From Dehalococcoidales bacterium (GTDB lineage Bacteria > Chloroflexota > Dehalococcoidia > Dehalococcoidales > GCA-2688105), in assembly GCA_002688105.1 (NCBI GenBank), contig NZBQ01000009.1, positions 21,389 to 63,555 on the forward strand: a DNA stretch of 42,167 bases. Reading direction: 5' to 3'. This document shows positions 28,529 to 42,167 of this stretch, in pieces. Both the position numbers and the translations under genes were made by a program. Position 1 is the stretch's first letter. Every line of letters starts with the position of its first letter. The notes beneath the pieces were generated by a model, which saw nothing but the letters and a program-made list of their open reading frames with translations, searched no databases and had not been told where the DNA came from.

Positions 28529-29122
28529 CTACACTTTCTCTAAAACAGGTAGCATATCAACTCCCGGAATTACTTTTTCCCCATCCTTGCCAACTATTTT
28601 CACCCTGGCACCTAAAGCAATTAAGACTGGAGCGGTATCTGATTGGAGAATCCTTTTTTGACAGCCCCTGTCTTCTTTATCCACATAACACACCTTACCA
28701 CCCAGTTTATAGCATGGCGTCCAGCTTCGATGCCAATCATGAGATTGATTATAATACCAGCACCTGGACTCCTGACAGATATTACCGGCGATGGAACCGA
28801 CATTCCTGACCTGGAGGTAAGCCACCCGGCCGGCAGCCTGAGCTAAAACACCGAGCTTTTCCTGAATTACCGAGGAAGTCTCTATAGCACGAAGGGTAGT
28901 TAAAGCACCGATTTTTATCCCGTTCCCGCCGTCTGAGTTAATATAAGCTAAACCGGGGATTCTCTTAAGGTTCACTAAGTAATGAGGTGTAACCACCTCC
29001 TGTTTCATCAGAACTAATACATCAGTACCACCGGCAATTAACTTCGCCTTCCCCTTATATTTCTTAAGTAGGGAGATCGCTTCCTCAACTGTTTTTGGTT
29101 CAAGGTACTCAAAGGTTTTCAA
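28529..29122 (-). pseudogene. 3'-truncated FAD subunit of xanthine dehydrogenase family (HcrB-like, FeS insert)
   Basis: FEYLEP, IAGGTD, IGALTTL, RNVGSIAGN, CQESRCWYY..CYK..C insert, SDTAPVL; similarity ends after EKVIP. Confidence 0.75.
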
Positions 29123-29279
29123 TACTTTACGTCTTCCCCCCAGATTTGTGATTACCTCTGGCAACCATTTAGCACATACTTACTCGCACGATTATCTCGC
29201 CGAGATCGGTCGGTTTTCCAATTTCCCGGCTTCTAATCAGGAACGAGACTTGCGGTAAGCTTCCTTCTTAATTATCCTA

Positions 29280-30479
29280 TTATTTCTTTTTCTTACGATA
29301 GATAAACTGGCAGTTTTGACAAGGACCGTATTCCAGAGCGAAGGTGCAGTAACCGGTGGGTTGTTCATCCTCAATTTCATCCTCTAAACCGGCAAGTTCG
29401 ATAACGTAATGGTTCACTCTAAGGGAAAGGGAATATTCGGTTTTGTAGTATGCCATTTTTCTGGCGTGAACATCAGGCGGTCCTAACTCCGGATTAGGAC
29501 ACCAATGCACTTCAGCAATCCACTCGTCTTCCGTATCCTTCACCACCTTATATCTTGAAGGCACATCAAGGAAGAATGCTTGATGTATTCTGCCTATGTC
29601 TCGGGCGGTCTTTGGCTTTTCCATACCTAACTTCTCCAAGGCGGCGTTGTAAGACATAACCAGCAACTGCTTCCAACACTCCCAATATAATTCTTCAGCT
29701 ATTTCCGGCCCAAATTCAGCATTCAGACACTTCCAGGTAAGGTAAACACCGGCATACTGATTTTTGGTCGCAATCAGCGCCTGTTCATCAGATGTCCGGT
29801 TGGTTACCGCCATACAATAGTCCAGAACATCGTCCAGGCTTAAGTCACGGCAGTCACCCAATCTCCCCTCTTTCTTGGCCGGCGCTACTTCCCCAGGTTC
29901 TTTCTTGGTCGTCTTCCACTCGTAGATGCCACGGCAAACATGGTCTGCCTTGTCCAGACAGGCAAATTTGTCTGCGGTAGCTACTACTTTATCTTCCAGC
30001 CCAGCCAACTCTATCAACCTGGGATAAATCCATTCTTCAGTGGCAGCAGCTGCCTTCAACCAGGTAGAATCCAAATCTTCACCAAAAACTTCTTTGGCTA
30101 TTTGAACCAAAGGACAAGCCAGGACAGTCATAGTAGCACGACCGGGTTCTTCGCTTATTTTAGAAGGACAAGGAGTTCCGTCATTGATAAACATTCGTAT
30201 CCGAACCAGCTTGTCAAGGTCATCCACTTTATCTATACCAAGTACTTCCTTAGCAGCTTTGAATGCCCCATCTACCACCGACTCCCACTTTTTGCGGTGC
30301 ATTTCTATGGCTTTTTCCGGCCCATACTTAGCTTCAACAGCAGCCACCAATTGATGGTCAACCGCCAGAGAGCCCACCATAGCCGCCTTAGCATGCTCAT
30401 ATGTAGACCTACCGGATTCCTTCAGCACCTCAAAAAACTCTCTTTCCTCAGGTTCAAGTTTTTTCATGTCCAGTACCAT
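29280..30479 (-). CDS. Hypothetical protein with two tandem ATC-hydrolase/V4R-like Cys-motif domains
   Basis: Repeated pattern (Y/F)GPE.A.E...W..LG...V..CP...C..C..IY.(W/K)K; AAGGAGGT RBS. Confidence 0.65.
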   Translation of the reverse strand: MVLDMKKLEPEEREFFEVLKESGRSTYEHAKAAMVGSLAVDHQLVAAVEAKYGPEKAIEMHRKKWESVVDGAFKAAKEVLGIDKVDDLDKLVRIRMFINDGTPCPSKISEEPGRATMTVLACPLVQIAKEVFGEDLDSTWLKAAAATEEWIYPRLIELAGLEDKVVATADKFACLDKADHVCRGIYEWKTTKKEPGEVAPAKKEGRLGDCRDLSLDDVLDYCMAVTNRTSDEQALIATKNQYAGVYLTWKCLNAEFGPEIAEELYWECWKQLLVMSYNAALEKLGMEKPKTARDIGRIHQAFFLDVPSRYKVVKDTEDEWIAEVHWCPNPELGPPDVHARKMAYYKTEYSLSLRVNHYVIELAGLEDEIEDEQPTGYCTFALEYGPCQNCQFIYRKKKK

Positions 30480-30545: not shown

Positions 30546-31397
30546 TCACCTTTTCGGTGGAAAGTATAAATCTTCAGCTATATCAGCCACTCGCCTTAAA
30601 ATCTCGGGTCTGACGTCACGCAGCAATGGAAGGTCCAGCCTGGCCTGCGTGATGATATCAGGGTCTAATTCCCTCTGAATGATTTCGTCGTTAAGGTCCT
30701 CTCCATATTGTGCGCTCTCTATAATTTGAGCAGCGTTATCGACTATGCAGGAGCCGCCTTCAAAAACCACTCCTTCCTGTGGGCCAATCTCATTCACAAA
30801 GGCGAAAAAGGCTTGATTTTCCACTGCCCGGGCTTGGGCGAGAAGCCGGAAAACATCAGGGACTTTAAAAGGAGAAGCCGAAATGTTAAACAGCAGCCAG
30901 GCTCCCTGGAGCGCACAGCACCTCTCTATCTCTGGGAACCAGAAATCGTAACAAATTTCTACCCCAATTTTACCGAACCTGGTATCAAACACCTTGATGT
31001 CAAAGCCCGGTTTAAAGAAGAGATGCTCTTCGTATCGGACCCCGGCATATTCAAAGGTTACCAAATGGAGCTTTCGATAGACCCCTAAAACCCCGTCAGG
31101 CTCAATTAACACTGCTGAATTATGGGCTAAGCTCCCGTTCAACTCCGGCATACCGAAAAGGATATCAATGTTCTTATCTTTAGCCAGTTTGACCACTTTT
31201 TCAGTTGCAGGTCCTCCAATTGGTTCCGCATGTTCCAACCATCTTTTACCACATACATACCCGGTCAGAGCCATCTCAGGAAAGGCAACGAAGTCAGCCC
31301 CATCCTTGGCCGCCTGGCTGGAAAGGTCCAGAATCTTTTCCAGATTCCGCTTTTTGTTATGAAGCTCTGGCTTCATCTGCACTAAAGCTAATTTCAT
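30546..31397 (-). CDS. Carbon-nitrogen hydrolase (nitrilase family)
   Basis: Catalytic triad FPE, YRKLHL, ICYD; ARAVENQ. Confidence 0.93.
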   Translation of the reverse strand: MKLALVQMKPELHNKKRNLEKILDLSSQAAKDGADFVAFPEMALTGYVCGKRWLEHAEPIGGPATEKVVKLAKDKNIDILFGMPELNGSLAHNSAVLIEPDGVLGVYRKLHLVTFEYAGVRYEEHLFFKPGFDIKVFDTRFGKIGVEICYDFWFPEIERCCALQGAWLLFNISASPFKVPDVFRLLAQARAVENQAFFAFVNEIGPQEGVVFEGGSCIVDNAAQIIESAQYGEDLNDEIIQRELDPDIITQARLDLPLLRDVRPEILRRVADIAEDLYFPPKR

Positions 31398-31446
31398 AAA
31401 ACCTTCCCTCCTAAGATTTTGGGCTATATAGAAATTATCCTCAGGC

Positions 31447-32724
31447 TTACCACTCTATCCATCCGGTATCAACCGGACCTTCTCCTGCCCAGATCGTCTT
31501 GCCCGTTTTAGCATGAACGATAGAGATGGCACCAGTGGGGCAAATCCCGGCACAGAATCCACAACCCACGCACTCCACGTCATCTACCCCAATTTCGTCC
31601 TTATCTTTATCGGCACTTATAGCATCATGAATGCAGGTGATAACACACTGCATGCAGAAGTTACATTTGCCAACATCAAACTCAGGCAGAACAGGAGTGG
31701 ATACACTCTTTAGATCCAGCATTGCCTCTTCATGAGGAACATCTTTATATAGCTTCAGCTGAGGCAAAAGCTTACCTTTAAAGTCATTGATGCTGTTATA
31801 TCCTTTTCTCTCCATAAAGGCTTCAATTCCGTTAAGGATTTCGGGGAACACTCGCGCACCCTTAAAATATAGCGAAGAAACCATCTGAACCGTCGGACAG
31901 CCGAGAAGAATGTACTCGAGAGCATCCTCTGTCTTGAAAATGCCACCGCAGCCTGATACTTCAAGGTCACAGGCTTGTTTGATCTGAGCCACTTTGGCAA
32001 TTCCCCACCACTTCAAAGATGGCCCGGGAATATAACCGACCAGGGTGTTTGCTCCCCTGATTACTTCATTCTCCACATCAATTGAAAAGCCTCCAGGTGC
32101 ATTGACCGCCGTGCAGAAATCAGCCCCACCGTCCCTCTGAGCAATAACAGCTATCCTATCAAGCCTTCTAATGGTAGGTGAAAGTTTAATGCCGACGGGA
32201 ATATTTACTGCCTTCTTTACCGCGGCAGTCAGCCTGGCGGTAATCCCGGGGTCTTCTCCAAGCTCAATTTCATCGTAATTATCCGATTCTCCCGGCGCCA
32301 GCGGACAGCCTAAATCCAATTCAATGGCTTCAACCCCAGCCGCTTCTACCAACTGGGCTAACTCGCCCCAATCATCTAAGTCTGCCCCCCGACCAACAAT
32401 ACTCTGTATCCACCTGGCATTGTATTTCTGGCATATTTCCTTGAATCTTGGAGCCTCTTCTTTAGCCCAAACATCCGGGGGTATGGTGCTTAACAATTCC
32501 CCCTCTGTCATGGCTCCTTTTAGGCCATGCCTGCTTAACGGATAAAAGGTCGGCCTAATATAACTGCGTAACTTTGGGTCAGATGTTACCGTTTTGGCGA
32601 GTACACCGCCAGCCCCGGCTTTCAGCCATTTCTCGGTAACCTTCGCCCACTCGGTTATACCGGCACAACCGGCAATCAGCGGATTTTTAAAGGTCAATCC
32701 TACCATTCTCGTCTTTAGTGACAA
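31447..32724 (-). CDS. Dihydropyrimidine dehydrogenase PreA-like FMN protein with C-terminal 2x[4Fe-4S] domain, divergent
   Basis: FKNPL, KT, ELDLGCP, KLSP, SGCGGI, CNFCMQCVITC and CVGCGFCAGICP; TTG at 32724 after AAGGGGAG. Confidence 0.85.
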   Translation of the reverse strand: MSLKTRMVGLTFKNPLIAGCAGITEWAKVTEKWLKAGAGGVLAKTVTSDPKLRSYIRPTFYPLSRHGLKGAMTEGELLSTIPPDVWAKEEAPRFKEICQKYNARWIQSIVGRGADLDDWGELAQLVEAAGVEAIELDLGCPLAPGESDNYDEIELGEDPGITARLTAAVKKAVNIPVGIKLSPTIRRLDRIAVIAQRDGGADFCTAVNAPGGFSIDVENEVIRGANTLVGYIPGPSLKWWGIAKVAQIKQACDLEVSGCGGIFKTEDALEYILLGCPTVQMVSSLYFKGARVFPEILNGIEAFMERKGYNSINDFKGKLLPQLKLYKDVPHEEAMLDLKSVSTPVLPEFDVGKCNFCMQCVITCIHDAISADKDKDEIGVDDVECVGCGFCAGICPTGAISIVHAKTGKTIWAGEGPVDTGWIEW

Positions 32725-32802
32725 CTTAACTCCCCTTTCTTTTTCGAGATAAAGAAATCGCATTATACCCAGAGACACATATTAGTCTCGCAATAATGAA
32801 AT

Positions 32803-33732
32803 TTAGACTTCTCCCTTGATGTAAGGGACAGCCAACTTCCTAGGCGGAACAGCTTTCCTCACCACACCGACTATACCGACTAAGACAATTACGGTTACAA
32901 CATAGGGCAACATAAGGAGTAGCGGGAACGGGACAGGAACTCCTGCCGCCTGCAGCTGCATCTGTAGGGCATCAATAAAAGCAAACAGAAGTGAACCACC
33001 AAGTATACCCCACGGGTTCCACCCGCCGAAGATGACAATACAAAGAGCTATAAATCCACGGCCGGCGGTCATATTCTCACTGAATCTATGTAATACTGCT
33101 AATGGTAGATATGCCCCACCAAATCCTGACATGGCACCAGTGATAAGAACACTGAGGTAACGCATTTTGGGGACACTGTATCCAGCCATATCAACTGCTA
33201 ATGGGTTCTCCCCCGTTGCTCTAACAAGTAAACCAAAGCGTGTCCGGAACATAATAAGGGCAAAAACGACAACCAAAAGCATGGCAATGTAAAACAGGAC
33301 ATTCTGCTGGAAGATGACTGGACCGATTCCAGGGAGGTCGCTCAGCACTGGTATTTGAACAGATGCAAAACCATCTAGAGGGTCCGTGATGCCCACTGTT
33401 CTAAATATAAAGGAACTAATTCCCATACTAAACAGCCATATGGCTATGCCACTGATTATCTGGTTAGTTTTAAATGTTATCGACAAACAGGCGTGGACTA
33501 GACTGAGCGCCGCACCGGCCAGCATTCCTATAACTATGCCAAACCACACATTGCCGGTAGTAACCGCCGCAAGGTATGAGGCTACAGCACCCATTAACAT
33601 ATATCCTTCAACACCTACGTTATATACTCCAGACCGCTCTGAAACTGCCTCACCCAACGACGGAACGAGCAAAGCAAAACTCATCCGTAGGGTAGCCGCT
33701 AACACCGGGATTATAAGTGGGTAAAAATCCAT
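32803..33732 (-). CDS. ABC transporter permease (nucleoside/BMP-associated)
   Basis: SERSGVYNVGVEG, RATGENP, AGRGFIAL, MLPY. Confidence 0.92.
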   Translation of the reverse strand: MDFYPLIIPVLAATLRMSFALLVPSLGEAVSERSGVYNVGVEGYMLMGAVASYLAAVTTGNVWFGIVIGMLAGAALSLVHACLSITFKTNQIISGIAIWLFSMGISSFIFRTVGITDPLDGFASVQIPVLSDLPGIGPVIFQQNVLFYIAMLLVVVFALIMFRTRFGLLVRATGENPLAVDMAGYSVPKMRYLSVLITGAMSGFGGAYLPLAVLHRFSENMTAGRGFIALCIVIFGGWNPWGILGGSLLFAFIDALQMQLQAAGVPVPFPLLLMLPYVVTVIVLVGIVGVVRKAVPPRKLAVPYIKGEV

Positions 33733-33760
33733 ATATCTACCCCTCCCTTTTAACAATCAG

Positions 33761-34825
33761 TTAATCATGATGAATCTTAAATAGATTTTCAAAGCGTTGC
33801 TCTAGGAATGGCAGTAGCACCAAAGCCAACATAATGACAGCCACTAATACATGAACCACGGTAACATCAAGGCCAAGACTTGACTGAACATAATGGCTCC
33901 CAGATAATAACCCTCCCAGGAATATCGCCATAATCACTGCCCCCAGAGGATGCAACCTTCCAACAAAAGCAACTACTATGGCTAGAAACCCGTAACTAAC
34001 AGAAATATTATCTGCCAGCACATGGAAAATCCCTGATACCTGAGCCATCCCGGCAATACCAGACAGACCACCACTTAAAATCATAGAAGTTACAACAATT
34101 TTCCTAACCGGTATACCACCATACAATGCTGTATCAGGATTTACACCTACAGCTTTAATATGATAGCCGTAGGTACTCTTTTGCAAAATGAACCAGACCA
34201 CTACTGCCAGTACCAAGGCTATTATGAATCCCGCATGTGCGCCAGTTCCCGGCAGTATTGGCAGCCAGGCGGTAGGCCATATTTGTTCACTTACCGGAAA
34301 ACCGGCCGCAGTAGTTGACCTCCACGGAAACTTTATCAAATAAGATACAAACCATACAGCAATGAAAACCATGAGTAGAGAAGTGATGATTTCGTTGGTA
34401 TTGAATCTGGCTCGTAAATATCCAGGTATTGCTCCCCATACCGCCCCAAAAATGAAGGCAAATATAACCATTAAGAGAATCTGCAACGGCCCGGGTATAC
34501 TGGGAACAAAATATCCGGCTATAAGAGCCCCTACTGCTCCCATATACAATTGCCCTTCAGCACCTATGTTCCATATTCCAGCCCTGAATACCAGTAAAAG
34601 TCCTAAAGCACAAAATAGAAGAGGGGTCGCCTGATTTAGCGCCTGACCTAGCCTATGTAAACTCCCAAAGCCTCCGCTAAACAAGCCCAAAAACACTTCT
34701 CCGGGATTGAACCCGGAAATAGCAACTAAAATTGAAGTAATCCCAAATGCTACAGCAAACACGATTAATAAAGGGATTACCTTGCTAAGATAATAGCCCC
34801 GCCTTGGGGATAAACGTAATCTCAC
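33761..34825 (-). CDS. ABC transporter permease (nucleoside/BMP-associated)
   Basis: ATPLL, WNIGAEGQ, NEIITSL, GRLHPLG. Confidence 0.92.
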   Translation of the reverse strand: MRLRLSPRRGYYLSKVIPLLIVFAVAFGITSILVAISGFNPGEVFLGLFSGGFGSLHRLGQALNQATPLLFCALGLLLVFRAGIWNIGAEGQLYMGAVGALIAGYFVPSIPGPLQILLMVIFAFIFGAVWGAIPGYLRARFNTNEIITSLLMVFIAVWFVSYLIKFPWRSTTAAGFPVSEQIWPTAWLPILPGTGAHAGFIIALVLAVVVWFILQKSTYGYHIKAVGVNPDTALYGGIPVRKIVVTSMILSGGLSGIAGMAQVSGIFHVLADNISVSYGFLAIVVAFVGRLHPLGAVIMAIFLGGLLSGSHYVQSSLGLDVTVVHVLVAVIMLALVLLPFLEQRFENLFKIHHD

Positions 34826-34827
34826 TG

Positions 34828-36360
34828 CTAGCCCTCACCTCCTCCACCGCCAACCATCAGTCTTTCTATCTCACTTCTATTAATTTTGTCGTGGGGGAAC
34901 ATCGTCATTTTCCCCTCAAACATAACTCCAACCCTATCGGATAATCTCAAAACCTCATCCAGGTCATAAGAGACTAATAAAGTCGCTTTCCCATTTTCTC
35001 TCTGCTCTACTAGTCTCTCATTCACAAACTCAACAGTTTTGGCATCCAAGCCTCTGACCGGTTGGGCAGCAATTATAAGCTCCGGCTCCCAGGCGAATTC
35101 TCTGGCTAAGACCATCTTCTGTAGATTCCCGCCTGATAAATGCCTGGCTAGCGCATCTATTCCCCTCGTTATCACATTATACTTTTTGACCTGCTTTTCA
35201 GCGAAGCTCCTGATGGGAAGAAAATTCAAAAACGGGAAACGATTGGAAAGAAATCTGTAGATAAAAGGAGGCTTATCTTCTCGTCCCAGGATTAGATTCT
35301 CGCTAATGGCCAAATCACTAAACGAGCCCATCTTCATCCGCTCCTCGGGGATATGCGCCATTCCCATCTCCCTCCGAGCTTTTGGCGAGTAATTGGTTAC
35401 CTCTTTCCCTTTGAACAATATACTGCCTTCTTCAACTTTGCGCAGGCCAGTAATAGCCTCAATCAGCTCTTTCTGACCATTACCAGCTACACCAGCTACA
35501 CCCACAATCTCGCCTTTTAAGACATTAAAGGATATTTCTTTAATCCTGGTTAGCCTCCGAACATCCTTGACATGCAAATTTTTTACCTCTAAAACTGGGG
35601 ATCTATCCTTGGCGGCTATTGGCTTATATTCCCGAACAGTTACCTTTCCCCCAAACATTGCCTCAACCAATCCGGCATGAGTTGCGCCCTTGGCATCCTG
35701 CTCTGAGACAATCTTCCCATCTCTTAAAATTGTTATCCGGTCGGTGAGGAGTGCTTCCATCAATTTATGGGTAATAAATATAACCGATTTTCCTTGGCTG
35801 GTCATTGAGCGCAGTATCTTGAACAATTCCTCTGTCTCCTGAGAAGTAAGAACAGCCGTTGGCTCATCCAGAATGAGGATTTCCGCACCTTGGTAAAGGG
35901 CTTTAAGGATTTCGACACGCTGTTGCTCTCCCACCGATAGCTCCTCTACCTTTGCCTGTGCTTCTATGTGAAAGCCACAACTTTCTGCCAGAGCTAACAC
36001 CCTCCTCCGGGTTTCTTTCTCATCGATTAGAACGTTTCTGGCAGGAATATCTCCAAGAACAATATTCTCGCTGACGGTGAGCGGCAGAACCAAACTAAAG
36101 TGCTGAGATACCATCCCTATTTTCTGATTTATGGCATCTCTAGGGGACCTCAGCTTCATCTTTTGGCCTCTGATGTATAGCGCCCCTTCATCTGGCTGCC
36201 ATAAGCCGTAAAGAACGTTCATTAGAGTTGTCTTGCCGGCGCCATTCTCACCAAGCAGAGAATGTATCTCCCCCTCCTCCACCTGGAGAGTAATATTATC
36301 ATTAGCTACTAACTCTCCAAACCGTTTAACAATGTTCTCCATTTTCAGAATTGGTGCCAT
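34828..36360 (-). CDS. ABC transporter ATPase with two ABC domains
   Basis: GENGAGKT, LSVGEQQRVEI, LDEPT, LSGGNLQK. Confidence 0.95.
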   Translation of the reverse strand: MAPILKMENIVKRFGELVANDNITLQVEEGEIHSLLGENGAGKTTLMNVLYGLWQPDEGALYIRGQKMKLRSPRDAINQKIGMVSQHFSLVLPLTVSENIVLGDIPARNVLIDEKETRRRVLALAESCGFHIEAQAKVEELSVGEQQRVEILKALYQGAEILILDEPTAVLTSQETEELFKILRSMTSQGKSVIFITHKLMEALLTDRITILRDGKIVSEQDAKGATHAGLVEAMFGGKVTVREYKPIAAKDRSPVLEVKNLHVKDVRRLTRIKEISFNVLKGEIVGVAGVAGNGQKELIEAITGLRKVEEGSILFKGKEVTNYSPKARREMGMAHIPEERMKMGSFSDLAISENLILGREDKPPFIYRFLSNRFPFLNFLPIRSFAEKQVKKYNVITRGIDALARHLSGGNLQKMVLAREFAWEPELIIAAQPVRGLDAKTVEFVNERLVEQRENGKATLLVSYDLDEVLRLSDRVGVMFEGKMTMFPHDKINRSEIERLMVGGGGGEG

Positions 36361-36573
36361 CTCACCCTCCAAACCAGCCTCATAGATATCTCCTCTGACG
36401 AAAGTTCTAATCTATTTACCATACTGAAGTCTGAATCCGCTCGACAGAATTATCTATAAAACTGCCATTACATATTTTACCCTACATCACATCGCACACC
36501 GACATACCCGCACTTTCTATGGCGTGCAGTCTATAAGTCAAATTACGCACCAAGTTCGCATCTCCAGGCAACC

Positions 36574-36601
36574 CTTGGGCAAGTCCTAAGACCTGCCCAA
36601 G
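36574..36601 (-). terminator. Stem-loop downstream of the binding-protein gene (partial terminator or stabiliser)
   Basis: CTTGGGCAGGTC-TTAG-GACTTGCCCAAG on the minus strand. Confidence 0.55.
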
Positions 36602-36673
36602 AATCACCCCTTCTCCTCCCCTTTCCCTAGAGTAGAGAGGATAAAGTAAAGCCGACTACGAAGTGATCAAAGT

Positions 36674-37834
36674 TCAGGGTAATTCTATGCCTAGTTCTTC
36701 AGCAGATGGTATATCGTAGTCATCAGGCCATACGGTCCCTATATAGTTTAGGGTTCTTAGCGACGGGACGTGTATCACCTCGGTGGCGATAGCCTCGGTG
36801 AGTTTGTCAGCTACAGCCGCGATTTCATCTGACACATTACTCACTGGAGCGATAGCTGGCCAGCCTTGTATGAGGGAATAATTAGAGGCCGTATGCGTAA
36901 TGGTGCCAGATCTGTAGTCCAGTAAGGCGCGTTCTGCCAAGAGATAATGGTCCAGAAGAACACTGGTTAGGATTATGTCAGGCGCCATGTCATGTTGATC
37001 ACGGACAACTCCTACAAACCATTTATTTTCCTCTTGGGCGGCCTTAAGAACTCCTAAGCCAGACTCATCGGCGTACTGAAAAATCACATCAGCACCCGTG
37101 GCAATCATCGCTTGGGCACTCTCATAGCCCTTCTCTGGGTCAATCCAACTGCCAACCACCATGAACTCCACTTGTATATCCGGATTAACCCACTTAGCCC
37201 CCAACTCCATACCGGTACCACACCTAATTAGCTCCGGATAATCAACGCCAACAACCAGGCCAATATGTTGGGCCTCTGACTTCATAGCGGCGATAGCTCC
37301 AGCTATGAAATAACCCTGTTCCTCTCTCCGGTCATAACCAGCAACATTACGTGGCAGCAGAGCAATCACCCCGGCATCAGAACCAGGTACAGCATACCAG
37401 GTATCCGGGTATTTAGGGGAAACCGCTTTCATAGCCTCACCCCAGGTTTGGCCGGAATCAGTGTAAAGAAGCTCAGTCCCCAACTCCCCTTGTACCTCCA
37501 GGAACGTAGGAAAATCACCCCAGGGAACCAAATCAGTAAAGGTGATATCAACTATATCCCCATACCTATCCTGGAGATATAGGTAAGCTTCGTAAATACC
37601 TTGAGACCAGGCGCCATCTGTCCTCGACCCAATGGTGGCGACGGCCACCGTGGTCTTCTCAACTTCCGGGACCGGGGCCGGTGCTGGCGCTGGGGCCGGG
37701 GCCGGTGCTGGGGCCGGTGCTGGCGCTGGGGCCGGGGCCGGTGCCGGGGCCGGTGCTGGAGCGGCACAACCAGCAATAGCTAATCCCGTTACCACTACCA
37801 CTGCAATCAGTAGCATTACCATTCTATTTTTCAT
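36674..37834 (-). CDS. BMP-family ABC substrate-binding lipoprotein
   Basis: Lipobox IAGC, DGAWSQ, GAKWVNPD, GSWIDP, GADVIF, GVVRDQ. Confidence 0.92.
   Translation of the reverse strand: MKNRMVMLLIAVVVVTGLAIAGCAAPAPAPAPAPAPAPAPAPAPAPAPAPAPAPVPEVEKTTVAVATIGSRTDGAWSQGIYEAYLYLQDRYGDIVDITFTDLVPWGDFPTFLEVQGELGTELLYTDSGQTWGEAMKAVSPKYPDTWYAVPGSDAGVIALLPRNVAGYDRREEQGYFIAGAIAAMKSEAQHIGLVVGVDYPELIRCGTGMELGAKWVNPDIQVEFMVVGSWIDPEKGYESAQAMIATGADVIFQYADESGLGVLKAAQEENKWFVGVVRDQHDMAPDIILTSVLLDHYLLAERALLDYRSGTITHTASNYSLIQGWPAIAPVSNVSDEIAAVADKLTEAIATEVIHVPSLRTLNYIGTVWPDDYDIPSAEELGIELP
37673..37762 (-). repeat. Coding (Ala-Pro)15 repeat with 36-nt higher-order duplication
   Basis: Hexamer repeat; blocks starting at 37674 and 37710 are identical for about 35 nt. 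Confidence 0.9.
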
Positions 37835-38030: not shown

Positions 38031-39263
38031 TCAGTCTTTCTTGGAAGTTCCTTTCATCATTTCATCAAACAACATTACTGCCTTCTCCGAGAAAGCCGGG
38101 TCATTGATAGTCATATCCAGTTCAATAAACCTAACTGCGCTAGGATTTATCTTTTCCCTTATTACCTCAATGAATCTCCGACGACCTTCAGGGTCATGCA
38201 TCGGTGTCCCCTCTTCATCCAGCCGGGAAAAACTCCGAAGCGGGATTAGTAAAACGACAGGCCCTTTTGCTTTGTTTAGCCTCTCCGCCATTATCTCGGC
38301 TATTTCCACCTTCTCTTCTTGGCTAACCGGCACCTGAGCCGTCAAAGGATTGTGCCATCTAACCTCTCGGTTCTTATATTTCGCTGGCAGGGTATCTATG
38401 GCTCCGTTCCACTGGAACCAACTTATAGCACCCGGAGCAACAACCTGCGGAATACCCGTTTCACCGGCCGCCGTTAACTTCTCGTCACCGCCTTTAATCA
38501 CGCCACCACACACATAATTGGCTATCTCAAACATCGTGAAATCCAGTATGCCATCAATGTGTCCCTGTCTGATGAGAGTCTCGCAAGTCTTCATCCCTAT
38601 GGAATGGAAGACCGCCGGGTCATACCCCCTCTCAATAAGCATGTCCGAGCAATAATCGACGTGAGAAAATGCCGATGCACCCAGCGTGGTTATCGCTACC
38701 AACGGCTTCTCATCCTTTTCCTCCTGCTGGGTTTCCACCATGCCGCTTATCGCTCCAGCCGCCCTCCTCAATACCATCTTCGTTACTCTGTCCACACCAC
38801 ACGAATGCGTAACCGATTGCATCATTACCTGGTCCATCGCCACCGACTCGGGCGTCACCAATGCCGTATAGGTTATCGTCGATACCATTAACTTCGGGAT
38901 ATTAAACGGAAGCTCCTTCATCACCTTCAAACAAAGGGATGTCCCCATAGACCCACCAAGTCCAACTATGCCATCCAACTTTCCACCCGAAAGTAGCCTC
39001 TGAATAATATTTGAAGCTCCCTCAGCCATCACCGATATAGCTTCCGCTTCCTCCATGCCGGCAATCTCCTTGATGTCCTTCCCAATCGCCTTAGCTACTT
39101 CCTCATGAGTTACATCAGACTTAAAAGGAGGCTCCTTTAAGGCAGTACAAACATCTACCACTATGGTATTATGACCCCTCTCCCTGATGCGGTCTCTGAT
39201 ATATGCCGCCGCCTTACCTCTGGTATCTAAGGTAGCAATAATGGTGATACTCTTACTTTGCAT
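38031..39263 (-). CDS. Tm-1-like ATP-binding domain protein (UPF0261)
   Basis: IATLDTRG, GLGGSMGT, PKLMVST, VFHSIG, PQVVAPGA, HNP, INDPAF. Confidence 0.88.
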   Translation of the reverse strand: MQSKSITIIATLDTRGKAAAYIRDRIRERGHNTIVVDVCTALKEPPFKSDVTHEEVAKAIGKDIKEIAGMEEAEAISVMAEGASNIIQRLLSGGKLDGIVGLGGSMGTSLCLKVMKELPFNIPKLMVSTITYTALVTPESVAMDQVMMQSVTHSCGVDRVTKMVLRRAAGAISGMVETQQEEKDEKPLVAITTLGASAFSHVDYCSDMLIERGYDPAVFHSIGMKTCETLIRQGHIDGILDFTMFEIANYVCGGVIKGGDEKLTAAGETGIPQVVAPGAISWFQWNGAIDTLPAKYKNREVRWHNPLTAQVPVSQEEKVEIAEIMAERLNKAKGPVVLLIPLRSFSRLDEEGTPMHDPEGRRRFIEVIREKINPSAVRFIELDMTINDPAFSEKAVMLFDEMMKGTSKKD

Positions 39264-39296
39264 AAGTTATCCCCTCAACTATTTGGCTCTCTTTCT

Positions 39297-40943
39297 TTAA
39301 GCATTTTGCCTGGTTAGATAGTCCCCTATCTTTTGCCCCGCCGGGGACGACTCAGCCAACTTTAGCAGTTTATTTAAATCCTCATCCTGGTCAAGACTTA
39401 CCACTGGTACCTCCCCAAGTATTACCTCACCACTGCTTCCGTCGATAGAAATCTTATCCCCTTCCCTTATTATAGTGCCTTCAGGCATTCGGCACTGCTT
39501 GTCCTTATACTCAATACAAATTCCCTGGCATCCAACCACTGATGGTTTTCCCAGGTCACGGCATATAATAGCGGCGTGGCTAGAGGTACCACCCCTAGAA
39601 GTAACCAAACCCACAGCTGCCTTAATCCCGGCAACATCGGCCGGGGAAGTTTCTTGTCGCACCAGGATTACTTGTTCTCCCTTACCTTTCCAAACCAGAG
39701 CATCTTTAGGGGTAAAGACGACACGACCACTAACCACACCTGGAGAAATAGGAATCCCTGAGGTAATAACTTTTTTCTCGACAGAGTCAAGCTGAGTAGC
39801 CACTGACTGTTCCAACTGCTCCGTTGAGATTCTTGATAAGGCTTCTTCCTTAGTTATTAACCCCTCCTCCACCATATCAACAGCTATTTTTATCGCTGCC
39901 TTAGGCGTCCGTTTAGCGGTTCTACTCTGTAGCATAAAAAGTCTGCCTTCATCCACCGTGAATTCAACATCCTGAACGTCTTTATACCTCTTCTCCAATT
40001 TCTCCAAAGTTTTCTCTAAGGCAGGGTACACTTCCGGCATCTCTTCTCTTAGCTCCTCAATTTCTTTTGGTCTCCTGGTTCCCGCAACCACATCCTCTCC
40101 CTGGACATTCGTCAGATACTCACCATAGAGTCCTCTATTCCCCGTAGATATGTCCCGTGAAAAAACGACACCCGAACATGAGTTATCCCCACTATTGCCG
40201 AAGACCATTGTCTGAACGGTTACCGCCGTGCCCGGGAGGTCACCCGATATGTTTTTCATCCGGCGATACTCAATCGCCCTTGGGGTATTCCACGATTGGA
40301 ATACCCTGCCGATAGACCTCCACAACTGCTCATCAACACTTTCCAGAAAACTCTTACCATGTTTCTGGAAAACTTCCTCGAACTCCTGGGTGACATCTCG
40401 CAGGTCCTCCACTTCAAGCTGGGTTTCAGAGGTTAAATTCCCTTCGCTAACCTTATTCCTGATTATTATGTCAAACTCGCCATCTTCTATCCCCTCAACA
40501 GCAGTTCCAAAGCTTTGTAAGAGACGCCGATAGCAGTCCCACACAAACCAAGGGGCTTTATTATTCTTAATCAGCCTATCCACAATACTCCTGTTCAAAC
40601 CTATATTGAGCACTGTGTCCATCATGCCAGGCATAGAAACGGCTGCCCCAGAACGAGCCGAAACAAGAAGATGGTTTTCTGGGTCCCCAAACTTCCTGCC
40701 CGTGGCTCTCTCCAGCTTCCTGAGATTCGCATTAACCTCGTCTTTTAGCCCTGGTGGATACTGGCCTTCACCAGTGTAATATTTACCGACTTCGGCGGAT
40801 ATTATAAAGCCCGGAGGCACAGCTATTCCGATACTAGCCATATCCGCCAACCTAGCCCCTTTATTACCTAATATATCCCGTATTTCAAGGCTACCTTCAC
40901 CCTCACCGCTTTGGAAAAAGTAAACACGCTTCTCTACGCCCAT
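39297..40943 (-). CDS. Pyruvate phosphate dikinase-like protein: nucleotide-binding and phospho-His domains only
   Basis: LGNKGA, VPPGF, RSGAAVSMPGMMDTVLN, QTMVFGN, QGEDVVAG, QDVEFT, LQSR, GGTSSHAAI; ends at 548 aa without the pyruvate-binding barrel. Confidence 0.88.
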   Translation of the reverse strand: MGVEKRVYFFQSGEGEGSLEIRDILGNKGARLADMASIGIAVPPGFIISAEVGKYYTGEGQYPPGLKDEVNANLRKLERATGRKFGDPENHLLVSARSGAAVSMPGMMDTVLNIGLNRSIVDRLIKNNKAPWFVWDCYRRLLQSFGTAVEGIEDGEFDIIIRNKVSEGNLTSETQLEVEDLRDVTQEFEEVFQKHGKSFLESVDEQLWRSIGRVFQSWNTPRAIEYRRMKNISGDLPGTAVTVQTMVFGNSGDNSCSGVVFSRDISTGNRGLYGEYLTNVQGEDVVAGTRRPKEIEELREEMPEVYPALEKTLEKLEKRYKDVQDVEFTVDEGRLFMLQSRTAKRTPKAAIKIAVDMVEEGLITKEEALSRISTEQLEQSVATQLDSVEKKVITSGIPISPGVVSGRVVFTPKDALVWKGKGEQVILVRQETSPADVAGIKAAVGLVTSRGGTSSHAAIICRDLGKPSVVGCQGICIEYKDKQCRMPEGTIIREGDKISIDGSSGEVILGEVPVVSLDQDEDLNKLLKLAESSPAGQKIGDYLTRQNA

Positions 40944-41503
40944 TCATCCCTCTCTTTGCCTAAAAGATTAATAAGATCCTCATGTAACTCGAACCATATA
41001 GTATGATAGGAATCCACACTGTATTTGGCTAGGTACTCTGTCTTGCCATCCTTAAGGTTCTGGAGAGCCCGGCTAAACCGGCTGGGATAAATTTCATACC
41101 TCGGAACTAGCTCGGTTAACCCCTGGAAAATTTCACCTACCCTAGCATGAACACCTTCTAACTCATCAAGAGCCTTTTGGTCATCCTTTCCTATCTGCCA
41201 TTCACTCACTATCTTTTTGAAAGTATTATTCTCCTCATCAAACTTTTCATAGACAGTTTCCAACTCCTTCTCCCGACCTTCCACCTCGGCTTTTCTAAAT
41301 TGACTAATCGCTTCTTCTCCGCTTTCAGTGAGCATCCACATACCATTATCCTCAGAAATATAACCCGTTTTAACACAGCCACCAAATAGTTCTCTCGTCT
41401 TGGCCGGCTCCATTTCAACTATTGAGGCGATAACATCCGGGTCTTCTATTGCCTGCCTGATATTTATATAGTTGAGAATCTTAAATTCATCCAGTGACAC
41501 CAT
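40934..41503 (-). CDS. Hypothetical protein, N-terminal winged-helix-like region plus DSYHxxWFELHEDL motif (Rv1126c-like)
   Basis: GYI...WMLTESG wing pattern; DSYHTIWFELHEDL; 10-nt overlap with the PPDK-like gene. Confidence 0.7.
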   Translation of the reverse strand: MVSLDEFKILNYINIRQAIEDPDVIASIVEMEPAKTRELFGGCVKTGYISEDNGMWMLTESGEEAISQFRKAEVEGREKELETVYEKFDEENNTFKKIVSEWQIGKDDQKALDELEGVHARVGEIFQGLTELVPRYEIYPSRFSRALQNLKDGKTEYLAKYSVDSYHTIWFELHEDLINLLGKERDEWA

Positions 41504-41587
41504 AATACTACCATCCCTTATAGACTTTATCGTCCCAAGAAAACTTATAATTTCAGAAATTCAAGATTTCCTTGAGTTGATTCTAGC

Positions 41588-42167
41588 TCAAACACGTTTA
41601 AGAATTGTCACAATGCCTTCATCACCATCCACCCTGATAATATCCCCGGTCTTGATTTTACGGGTGGCAACCCTGGTGCCCACAACGGCGGGAACCCCTT
41701 CTTCCCGGGCAATGATAGCCGCATGACACATGTTCCCACCGGCATCCAGCACTACGCCTTTGCTCCTTACCAGAACCGGCCCCCAGGCCGGCGCTGTCGA
41801 AGACGTAACCAGGATATCACCATTCTTTACCTTATAGCTCTCTGAGAATCTGGGGATGACTACGGCCGGCCCTTCAGTAACACCAGCCGAGGCGGCTACA
41901 CCATTCACCACATCACTTTCCTCTTCCTCAGCCCTTTCCCATTCTTCCAGCCTCTCCTTGGTTATGCCCCATAGCATTACCGTAGATGGGTCAGAAAACT
42001 CTCCCTCAGGAAATACCCCAAGCAAGGTAGGAGGAGTATACTCACATAACTTCTCCCACATCATTTTTCTCTTGGCCACCTTCTTCTTCCAGTAAATATC
42101 CTTCACCGGTATGCCTACACCCCACGCCTGACAGACATCAAATATTACCTCATCTAATTCATACCTC
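41588..42167 (-). CDS. PEP-utilising phospho-His-domain enzyme, phenylphosphate synthase subunit A (PpsA)/CreH-like, 5'-truncated by window edge
   Basis: Frame open to the edge (RYELDEVIFDVCQAWGVG..YW); DP..MLWGIT, GVAASAG..EGPA, TAPAWGP, GGNMCHAAIIARE. Confidence 0.78.
   Translation of the reverse strand, partial: RYELDEVIFDVCQAWGVGIPVKDIYWKKKVAKRKMMWEKLCEYTPPTLLGVFPEGEFSDPSTVMLWGITKERLEEWERAEEEESDVVNGVAASAGVTEGPAVVIPRFSESYKVKNGDILVTSSTAPAWGPVLVRSKGVVLDAGGNMCHAAIIAREEGVPAVVGTRVATRKIKTGDIIRVDGDEGIVTILKRV

Follow-up and report, generated by a model that had tools for sequence, protein, structure and literature searches.

We analyzed a 42,167-nt stretch of DNA (the window; positions 21389-63555 of contig C9) from a Dehalococcoidales genome (label G000; 1.33 Mb in 46 contigs, 91% complete). 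At one end of the window lie three genes on the minus strand, for a PpsA-like protein (41588..42167), a 189-aa protein that we call X (40934..41503) and a 548-aa short PPDK (sPPDK; 39297..40943). The X and sPPDK genes occupy the position beside the PpsA-like gene that in orthologous clusters is held by PpsB, a stand-alone ATP-grasp subunit, and PpsB is absent from all of the X loci compared. We propose, tentatively and with slightly less than even confidence, that the three proteins form an ATP-dependent dikinase with three components, sPPDK and X replacing the ATP-grasp component for the window's PpsA-like protein; the substrate would be an imported hydroxylated (hetero)aromatic compound. Below, C5, C7, C10 and C11 denote other contigs of the same genome, and L numbers denote fetched loci.

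A short PPDK with its partner (VadK and Rv1126c of Mycobacterium tuberculosis) and the PpsA-type dikinases were each already known, the VadK-type truncated PPDKs having been described only in 2025-2026 (PMC13400623). Three points are new relative to the literature searched: X and its relatives are defined as a family, members of which are fused to short PPDKs; the pair recurs together with PpsA-like proteins; and PpsB is displaced. In that literature we found nothing on the Rv1126c family apart from mentions in Methods, and nothing linking truncated PPDKs with phenylphosphate-synthase-type enzymes.

The PpsA-like gene and the PpsB slot

The window stops inside the PpsA-like gene because contig C9 ends there. 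The C-terminal part that remains (open reading frame (ORF) 42166..41588, 192 codons) carries a PEP-utilizers domain (E 5.9e-23) with its swivel histidine in the motif GGNMCHAAI, and aligns to positions 415-608 of 608 in NF006153 (PRK08296 group; E 6.3e-64). C9 and C11 overlap exactly at their ends, the terminal 99 nt of C9 recurring in reverse complement at the end of C11, and the reading frame continues: C11:43876-45218 is a 447-codon open frame for the N-terminal part, the final 32 residues of which equal the first 32 of the fragment in the window. Joined in this way, the two parts would give a protein of about 607 aa, as long as PpsA/HpeH-type proteins, which consist of a substrate-binding domain and a C-terminal swivel His domain. 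The junction is supported by independent contigs, the same PpsA-like C-terminus lying directly upstream of X in L137, L138 and L139. DNA contigs of other runs break up inside the PpsA-like gene, as expected from its paralogues on C7 and C5.

Four metagenome contigs on which X is 74-93% identical to that of the window have a PpsA-like gene followed by a 189-aa X. Where these close-relative contigs are long enough, X is followed by sPPDK (547-548 aa), a UPF0261 gene and a BMP gene, and the 10-nt overlap between X and sPPDK described below is the same in L136 and L138. In L139 there are two PpsA-like genes in tandem.

The closest full-length relatives of the window's PpsA-like protein (35-39% identity) were found at 14 loci in eight other genomes. 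X and sPPDK are absent from all 14 loci, and the eight genomes have no X match. At six of the loci a stand-alone PpsB-like ATP-grasp gene lies directly beside the PpsA-like gene, and four of those six continue with molybdenum (Mo)-hydroxylase subunits and an ATP-binding cassette (ABC) ATPase like the window's; an ATPase of the window's importer type is present in the PpsA/PpsB/Mo-hydroxylase clusters L125, L126, L128 and L133. The order in L122 is UbiD-like (from a reading of the N-terminal sequence), PpsA, PpsB and UPF0261, so that PpsB stands where the window has X and sPPDK. Beside the window's own PpsA-like gene there is no stand-alone ATP-grasp gene (about 340-380 aa); its neighbours are a DUF1989 gene upstream and X and sPPDK downstream.

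To survey X more widely we used three sets: a phylum sample of 400 other genomes, 16 of which carry X; a genome-collection set of the best 80 loci among at least 600 motif matches, 595 of them confirmed; and a metagenome set of 80 loci. No conclusion drawn here depends on G038, G227, G344 or G145, four genomes flagged as unpublished. Many of the contigs compared are short, and at high-GC loci the ORF start was taken as the first possible start, with lengths and overlaps there being upper bounds. No PpsB-type gene was found in 176 X loci, either by BLAST or with a hidden Markov model of nine PpsB-like proteins. The model returned only sPPDK ORFs and short edge fragments (16-80 bits), against the 499-567 bits that, by construction, the training PpsB-likes reach. 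Given the position of the pair and this absence of PpsB beside X, we conclude that X and sPPDK fill the PpsB slot, the two kinds of PpsA-like neighbour being mutually exclusive in the loci examined.

By a strict rule, a PpsA-like ORF is present in the fetched stretch of 8 of the 16 phylum-sample X loci, two more being cut at locus edges, and a Mo-hydroxylase large subunit is likewise present in 8 of 16. In family f53 the gene order is PpsA-like, GntR-like (again an N-terminal sequence reading), Mo-hydroxylase subunits and a fused sPPDK-X. Five near-complete genomes with both a PpsA-like protein and sPPDK-X were examined, and in each of them all PF01326 (PPDK_N) matches fall within open frames that are 624 aa or longer. 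Besides sPPDK-X, the f53 genomes G253 and G381 have one long PPDK-type frame only, and G349 has one further long frame. Of the 80 X loci from the genome collection, 13 include a PpsA-like gene, 11 of them together with sPPDK. Tight PpsA-like/X/sPPDK operons occur there in Actinomycetota, namely in a Solirubrobacteraceae metagenome-assembled genome (L047), a Mycobacterium sp. (L088), in which PpsA-like genes flank sPPDK/X on both sides, and Antrihabitans (L099).

A tree of 35 PpsA-like proteins was built, leaving out partial edge ORFs and L083, L098, L104, L105, L171, L138, L179 and L203. The window clade (the window's N-terminal part, the C7 paralogue and L139) is sister to a clade whose members have PpsB or no ATP module beside them (SH-aLRT 100). 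Two further clades, of 12 and 4 rows, are wholly sPPDK/X-linked, and at least three changes of label are needed.

The genome has other PpsA-like genes. C10:60-6870 (L038) holds a canonical two-component dikinase set, with a PpsB-like protein of 340 aa, a PpsA-like protein of 563 aa and a UPF0261 protein of 409 aa; a BKACE-family protein and a PYC_OADA/HMGL-like carboxyltransferase complete a cluster reminiscent of the kinase-plus-carboxylase logic in Hpe/Acv pathways. The 6.3-kb contig C7 (C7:1-6275; L039) encodes the C-terminus of a DUF1989 protein, a PpsA-like protein of 610 aa, a BMP lipoprotein and two permeases. This PpsA-like protein is 89% identical to the window's in the N-terminal part and 82% in the C-terminal part, and matches rifampin-phosphotransferase-type chains (5fbs/5hv1) over residues 268-605. 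The C7 cluster lacks an ABC ATPase and its contig has ambiguous bases; it may be a true paralogue, or sequence of a related population may have been binned with this genome. A third copy at C5:49871-50534 consists of only the last ~200 codons, split over two frames (a 119-aa ORF and a swivel-domain match in the other frame), and adjoins cytochrome-c-maturation-like genes; it is probably a pseudogene.

The short PPDK and its partner X

The ATP-grasp and swivel domains of canonical PPDK (TIGR01828) align end to end with sPPDK, whereas the phosphoenolpyruvate (PEP)/pyruvate TIM-barrel is missing from both the protein and the genome. The alignment covers positions 2-525 of 865 in TIGR01828 and residues 2-527 of the 874-aa solved PPDKs (PDB 1dik, 5jvn and others; E 1e-131 to 1.3e-140). 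The ATP-grasp domain is matched by PF01326 (E 2e-45) and the swivel domain by PF00391 at residues 423-505 (PEP-utilizers, E 8.4e-23), with its histidine in GGTSSHAAI. On TIGR01828 sPPDK scores 629.2 bits, under the cut-off of 843.45, and is not a canonical three-domain PPDK; it does pass NF004531, the NCBIfam model for the roughly 530-aa PRK05878 PPDK, or mycobacterial short PPDK (470.9 bits, cut-off 456). The PEP/pyruvate domain PF02896 (PEP-utilizers_C) had no match in the 91%-complete genome and was found in 14 of 14 control genomes. The canonical PPDK reaction and a split canonical PPDK are thereby excluded. Since the UPF0261 gene begins 34 nt after the sPPDK stop, there is also no leftover of a third PPDK domain.

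The X and sPPDK ORFs share 40934..40943, a 10-nt overlap (ATGGGCGTAG), and a Shine-Dalgarno-like stretch (AGAGAGGGA) sits just upstream of it. The original prediction for this DNA had pointed to this overlap, to three co-oriented genes of which two carry a swivel His domain, to a PPDK-like protein that keeps its ATP-grasp motifs and stops after the His domain, and to a similar short PPDK with a small partner in mycobacteria. All of these observations stand, the last both in the mycobacterial loci compared here and in the report on VadK (PMC13400623).

The same features could in principle be the debris of a canonical PPDK, recently truncated or frameshifted, with the 189-aa ORF a fragment or a chance ORF. 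We regard this as extremely improbable. The N-terminal two thirds are indeed very PPDK-like, as the matches to solved PPDKs and to TIGR01828 (629 bits) attest, but the length of 547-548 aa is kept in relatives at 84-93% identity (L136, L138) and hundreds of short homologues sit with X. A 3.8-kb DNA contig of another run, moreover, spans 38031-41619 with zero indels. The NF004531 score and the conserved length of the relatives rule out a recent truncation, and no full-length PPDK was found at the locus in close relatives. A frameshifted sPPDK-X fusion is ruled out as well: X comes first here and last in the fusions, an order that a simple frameshift of a fusion cannot yield, and the overlap is retained in the relatives. 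Judged by these comparisons, sPPDK is a stable member of the short-PPDK family rather than a fresh truncation.

VadK (Rv1127c), a truncated PPDK, is reported to autophosphorylate with ATP and Mg (PMC13400623). The M. tuberculosis genome is reported to have no pyruvate domain for VadK, and Rv1126c to be its operonic partner; VadK became soluble when co-expressed with Rv1126c, and the two were parted with 2 M NaCl (PMC13400623, Methods). sPPDK is of the same type, in that the PEP/pyruvate domain is gone from protein and genome while the ATP-grasp domain and catalytic His are kept, and in that a partner gene of roughly 200 aa is adjacent. The mycobacterial loci read sPPDK then X, with small overlaps, whereas the order is reversed in the window, the neighbours of which are a PpsA-like protein, a UPF0261 kinase, an importer and a Mo-hydroxylase instead of methylcitrate genes. 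X would be the equivalent of Rv1126c, judging by position, size and mycobacterial homologues rather than by the Rv1126c sequence itself. In the available part of the VadK paper there is no discussion of the Rv1126c family, of short-PPDK fusions or of a link to PpsA-like proteins (PMC13400623).

X had been described in the original prediction as a winged helix-turn-helix (wHTH) partner. This holds for the MarR-like N-terminal third, but the protein as a whole is a conserved two-part protein that is often the C-terminal domain of a short PPDK. The AlphaFold2 model (pLDDT 94.3, pTM 0.86) has a wHTH at residues 4-58 followed by long helices. No Pfam family matches X above cut-off (PF24409 reaches 17.7 bits against a cut-off of 27, in the N-terminal third only) and no NCBIfam family matches it. 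Foldseek against the PDB returned MarR-type wHTH proteins (Rv0880 and others; 66-78 columns, root-mean-square deviation about 1.8-2.8, E 0.013-0.05), with no match at E <= 0.001 and no significant structural match for the helical domain at residues 60-189. A profile of 24 X homologues (A1) matches DtxR/MarR chains at E 3e-4 to 5e-3. X shows no family-level sequence membership in MarR and no MarR dimerisation helices, having a different helical domain at 60-189. Invariant throughout A1 are G62, Q103, R135, R142, A146, G153, S165, H167, W170, F171, E172, L173, H174, E175, L177, G182 and R185. Several of these fall in the motif SYHxxWFELHE (S165-Y-H167-x-x-W-F-E-L-H174-E), and in the model H167 is at the start of helix 166-180.

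Searching 1.84 billion representative sequences with a profile gave 2204 proteins at E <= 0.001, 820 of them at E <= 1e-30. Among the best 150 of the 2204, 117 are shorter than 300 aa, 19 have 590-783 aa and 14 lie between; in the longer proteins X is at the extreme C-terminus. A word-index search had found only five longer homologues, and the fusions became visible by the profile search. In the protein atlas the X clusters are unnamed or 'hypothetical' only. X forms the C-terminal domain of a 706-861-aa ORF in 13 of the 16 X-bearing phylum-sample genomes; the first roughly 470 residues of these ORFs are a short PPDK, joined to X by an Ala/Pro-rich linker. One fused homologue (L103) comes from a Chloroflexota bacterium.

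In the 80 best genome loci, X precedes sPPDK in 27, as in the window, follows it in 15, as in Mycobacterium, and is fused to it in 5; sPPDK lies elsewhere in the locus in 9, is not seen despite adequate flanks in 17, and the flanks are too short in 7. X thus flanks or is fused to a short PPDK in 47 of 80 (adjacent in 42), including in Mycobacterium species. The corresponding figures for the 80 metagenome loci are 8, 0, 16, 0, 12 and 44. Sequence comparison indicates that X is a member of a large, unnamed, conserved family and often the third domain of a short PPDK. Within fusions it replaces the PEP/pyruvate domain in position; here it is a separate, translationally coupled gene. X also exists stand-alone in housekeeping surroundings: in the metagenome loci L146 and L170 (about 8.2-11.5 kb) it lies between dapB-like and dapA-like ORFs (read by eye), with no short PPDK within 10 kb.

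The constant place of X in the fusions, where the third PPDK domain would be, raises the question of whether sPPDK and X could be a complete dikinase on their own. In such an enzyme X would be a second active site in place of the PEP/pyruvate domain, its His/Arg pocket taking the phosphoryl group and passing it to a small molecule or water, perhaps at another step of the same pathway (e.g. with the Mo-hydroxylase), and the PpsA-like protein would be merely a neighbour. The invariant polar residues (H167, H174, E172, E175, R135, R142, R185 and Q103) favour this. So does the position of the fused sPPDK-X ORFs, which in 8 of 16 phylum loci and 9 of 80 metagenome loci adjoin an ORF for a Mo-hydroxylase large subunit, but none of the 80 genome-collection loci showed a Mo-hydroxylase. 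The helical part of X resembles no known catalytic fold, its flexible linker differs from the structured ones in PPDK, and the absence of PpsB wherever sPPDK/X adjoins a PpsA-like gene would be left unexplained. We consider an independent dikinase unlikely. In metagenome loci L168, L175, L179, L188, L203 and L207 the fused sPPDK-X abuts or overlaps the 3' end of the Mo-hydroxylase large-subunit ORF, and the fused loci suggest a tight link between the kinase and a molybdenum hydroxylase in those lineages.

Proposed phosphoryl transfer and competing readings

For the HpeHI family it is reported that the ATP-grasp component presents ATP, that the swivel His of the large component attacks the beta-phosphate, and that the gamma-phosphate is hydrolysed and His~P phosphorylates the phenolic oxygen; HpeH and HpeI form a transient complex only (PMC12167813). 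PpsAB, CreHI, AcvAB and HpeHI share with the window a catabolic context and a roughly 600-aa component with a substrate-binding domain and C-terminal swivel His, and orthologues of the window's PpsA-like protein do have a stand-alone ATP-grasp partner. The window differs in that, instead of a 340-380-aa stand-alone ATP-grasp protein, it has a PPDK-type ATP-grasp with its own swivel His, together with X.

In the three-component dikinase that we propose, sPPDK would use ATP to phosphorylate its own swivel histidine while held with X as an obligate partner; in this lineage the X and sPPDK pair would have supplanted the stand-alone ATP-grasp subunit (PpsB/HpeI type). The phosphoryl group would be supplied by the pair and placed by the swivel His of the PpsA-like protein on a hydroxyl or enol oxygen of the substrate. 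The route might run directly from His to His, via X, or through the sPPDK ATP-grasp domain acting in trans on the PpsA-like His. We infer a physical coupling of sPPDK/X to the PpsA-like protein. A complex prediction of X against the window's PpsA-like protein, given as two chains, scored 0.00 (mark 0.32), which speaks neither for nor against binding.

A number of points weigh against this proposal. The evidence that links sPPDK/X to the PpsA-like protein is comparative. The loci were reached via X or via PpsA-like proteins, so that the features counted also define the groups and the sampling is biased; one family, f53, accounts for 11 of the 16 X-bearing phylum-sample genomes, which as relatives are not independent. 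The original prediction had expected the three families to occur together. They do so not only in close relatives but also in Actinomycetota and in further families of the phylum. By contrast, 67 of the 80 genome-collection X loci have no PpsA-like gene within 10 kb, and 17 loci of that set have no sPPDK near X despite adequate flanks. In 8 of the 14 orthologue loci neither PpsB nor sPPDK lies within about 9 kb, and a neighbouring ATP module is therefore not required. On C7 the PpsA-like gene leads directly to the BMP transporter, without X, sPPDK or UPF0261. The original prediction had also considered a PpsB-like gene upstream: there is none at the locus, but the one on C10, the only PpsB-like gene of the genome, could serve in trans from beside another PpsA-like gene. 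In addition, sPPDK retains its own swivel domain, which would be superfluous for a mere PpsB substitute, and VadK is reported to act on the methylcitrate cycle in M. tuberculosis (PMC13400623).

In the main rival reading the pair is a regulatory module: sPPDK would be an autophosphorylating histidine kinase that senses the ATP state and the wHTH protein X its phospho-acceptor or effector, controlling neighbouring catabolic genes or enzymes, and the PpsA-like protein would obtain its ATP-derived phosphate from the C10 PpsB-like protein. That X begins with a MarR-like wHTH is consistent with this, as is the published view that VadK is a kinase with a regulatory function and may act as a sensor of energy (PMC13400623). 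In most sPPDK/X loci a nearby PpsA-like gene is missing and the surrounding genes differ from one locus to the next, and the long Ala/Pro-rich linker tethers X in the fusions as it might a mobile target. However, X and sPPDK sit exactly in the PpsB slot of orthologous clusters, never with PpsB beside them; the f53 genomes examined carry a PpsA-like protein but no PpsB-type frame; and the C10 PpsB-like protein groups with its own adjacent PpsA-like clade. X has no above-threshold match to a Pfam or NCBIfam regulator, and the VadK paper reports no transcriptional regulation of methylcitrate genes (PMC13400623). On balance we find a regulatory role somewhat unlikely.

The PEP-dependent phosphotransferase system (PTS) passes phosphate from Enzyme I to HPr to Enzyme II, that is, from a swivel-His PEP-utilizer domain to a small protein and on to several substrate-specific modules. 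sPPDK, X and the PpsA-like protein could be an ATP-driven relay of similar logic for small molecules, with X as carrier or adaptor, an idea that we consider quite improbable. sPPDK would charge its swivel His from ATP. X would accept the phosphoryl group on the invariant His167, at the N-terminal end of its helix near invariant Arg residues, and pass it on to the swivel His of a single PpsA-like module or of several, each specific for a substrate; where no PpsA-like gene is close by, as in mycobacteria, the sPPDK~P / X~P pair would phosphorylate other client proteins. The parallel is that a single sPPDK/X pair has several PpsA-like genes around it in L088, L047 and L139; the differences are that the energy would come from ATP, not PEP, and that X is unrelated to HPr in fold. 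Such a relay, if real, would name the missing acceptor of VadK-type kinases.

The rest of the proposed operon and its surroundings

Under the dikinase proposal, the PpsA-like, X and sPPDK genes would form one conserved operon with the UPF0261 kinase and the BMP-type ABC importer genes that follow on the same strand. The UPF0261 gene (38031..39263, minus strand) encodes a putative MarK/Tm-1-type ATP-dependent kinase of 410 aa with both UPF0261 domains. A UPF0261 gene also lies downstream of sPPDK in L136 and L138, with a BMP gene after it in L138, and follows the PpsA/PpsB pairs on C10 and in L122; it belongs to the module as a fourth conserved gene. MarK of Novosphingobium aromaticivorans is a UPF0261 aromatic kinase of the ADP-forming type, homologues of which are reported to co-occur with AcvAB/HpeHI homologues in many genomes and to conserve an ATP-site triad, D14-T15-K16 (PMC12624787). 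The window's protein shares both domains and matches PDB 9mpy ('UPF0261 domain-containing protein') at E 3.5e-46, but has D13-T14-R15 where 9mpy reads D-T-K; two UPF0261 paralogues of the same genome read D-T-K (by eye). From its name, length and D-T-K match we take 9mpy to be MarK E16K.

The importer (BMP/PnrA type) is encoded by four genes at 32803..37834 on the minus strand: a substrate-binding lipoprotein (36674-37834), an ATPase (34828-36372) and two permeases (33761-34825 and 32803-33756). The lipoproteins of the window (37632-37783) and of C7:2528-3721 both have a long (Ala-Pro)n linker directly past the lipobox cysteine, with ~17 repeats in that of the window. After the importer, also on the minus strand, come a PreA-like protein of the dihydropyrimidine-dehydrogenase type (31447-32778; DHO_dh and 4Fe-4S) and a carbon-nitrogen hydrolase (30546-31397), both likely downstream pathway genes. 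Judging only by their co-orientation, the two (30546..32778) may belong to the same pathway. Genes for a 2-oxoacid dehydrogenase complex come after the hydrolase. In between are a 399-aa protein (29280-30479, minus strand) with sub-threshold matches only, to ATC_hydrolase and DUF6125, which lies between the hydrolase and an orphan flavoprotein. The latter (28529-29164, minus strand) is a 211-aa FAD_binding_5 protein of the Mo-hydroxylase flavoprotein type, without CO_deh_flav_C and with no adjoining Fe-S or Mo subunit, and lies between the 399-aa protein and the 2-oxoacid dehydrogenase genes.

Upstream of the PpsA-like gene, C11 carries the DUF1989 gene and then three subunits of a xanthine-dehydrogenase/CO-dehydrogenase-type Mo-hydroxylase. 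A few kb further upstream, C11:36875-38979 (L037) has corrinoid-protein-like and MttB-type methyltransferase-like ORFs (N-terminal sequence read by eye). By context, the importer, Mo-hydroxylase, dihydropyrimidine-dehydrogenase-like and carbon-nitrogen hydrolase genes point to a heterocycle as the substrate, and an imported aromatic or N-heterocyclic compound bearing a hydroxyl group would be the acceptor.

Scans for promoters (11 hits against 8.4 +/- 3.4 in shuffles) and terminators (6 against 4.4 +/- 2.1) did no better than shuffled sequence. In one study, two metatranscriptome libraries yielded contigs that match parts of the UPF0261, sPPDK, X and PpsA-like genes at >=99% identity; the cover is patchy, and DNA can be present in RNA libraries. 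Nine runs from six studies labelled marine or seawater each contain at least half of the sampled words, and one of these runs may be the source sample.

The comparative evidence thus offers a candidate client for the phosphohistidine of VadK-type kinases, in the form of PpsA-type substrate modules whose usual ATP subunit is gone. If this holds, the family of two-component small-molecule dikinases, relevant to the breakdown of aromatics and lignin-derived compounds, would be a wider one, and there would be a harmless environmental model for the biochemistry of a kinase family studied in pathogens.

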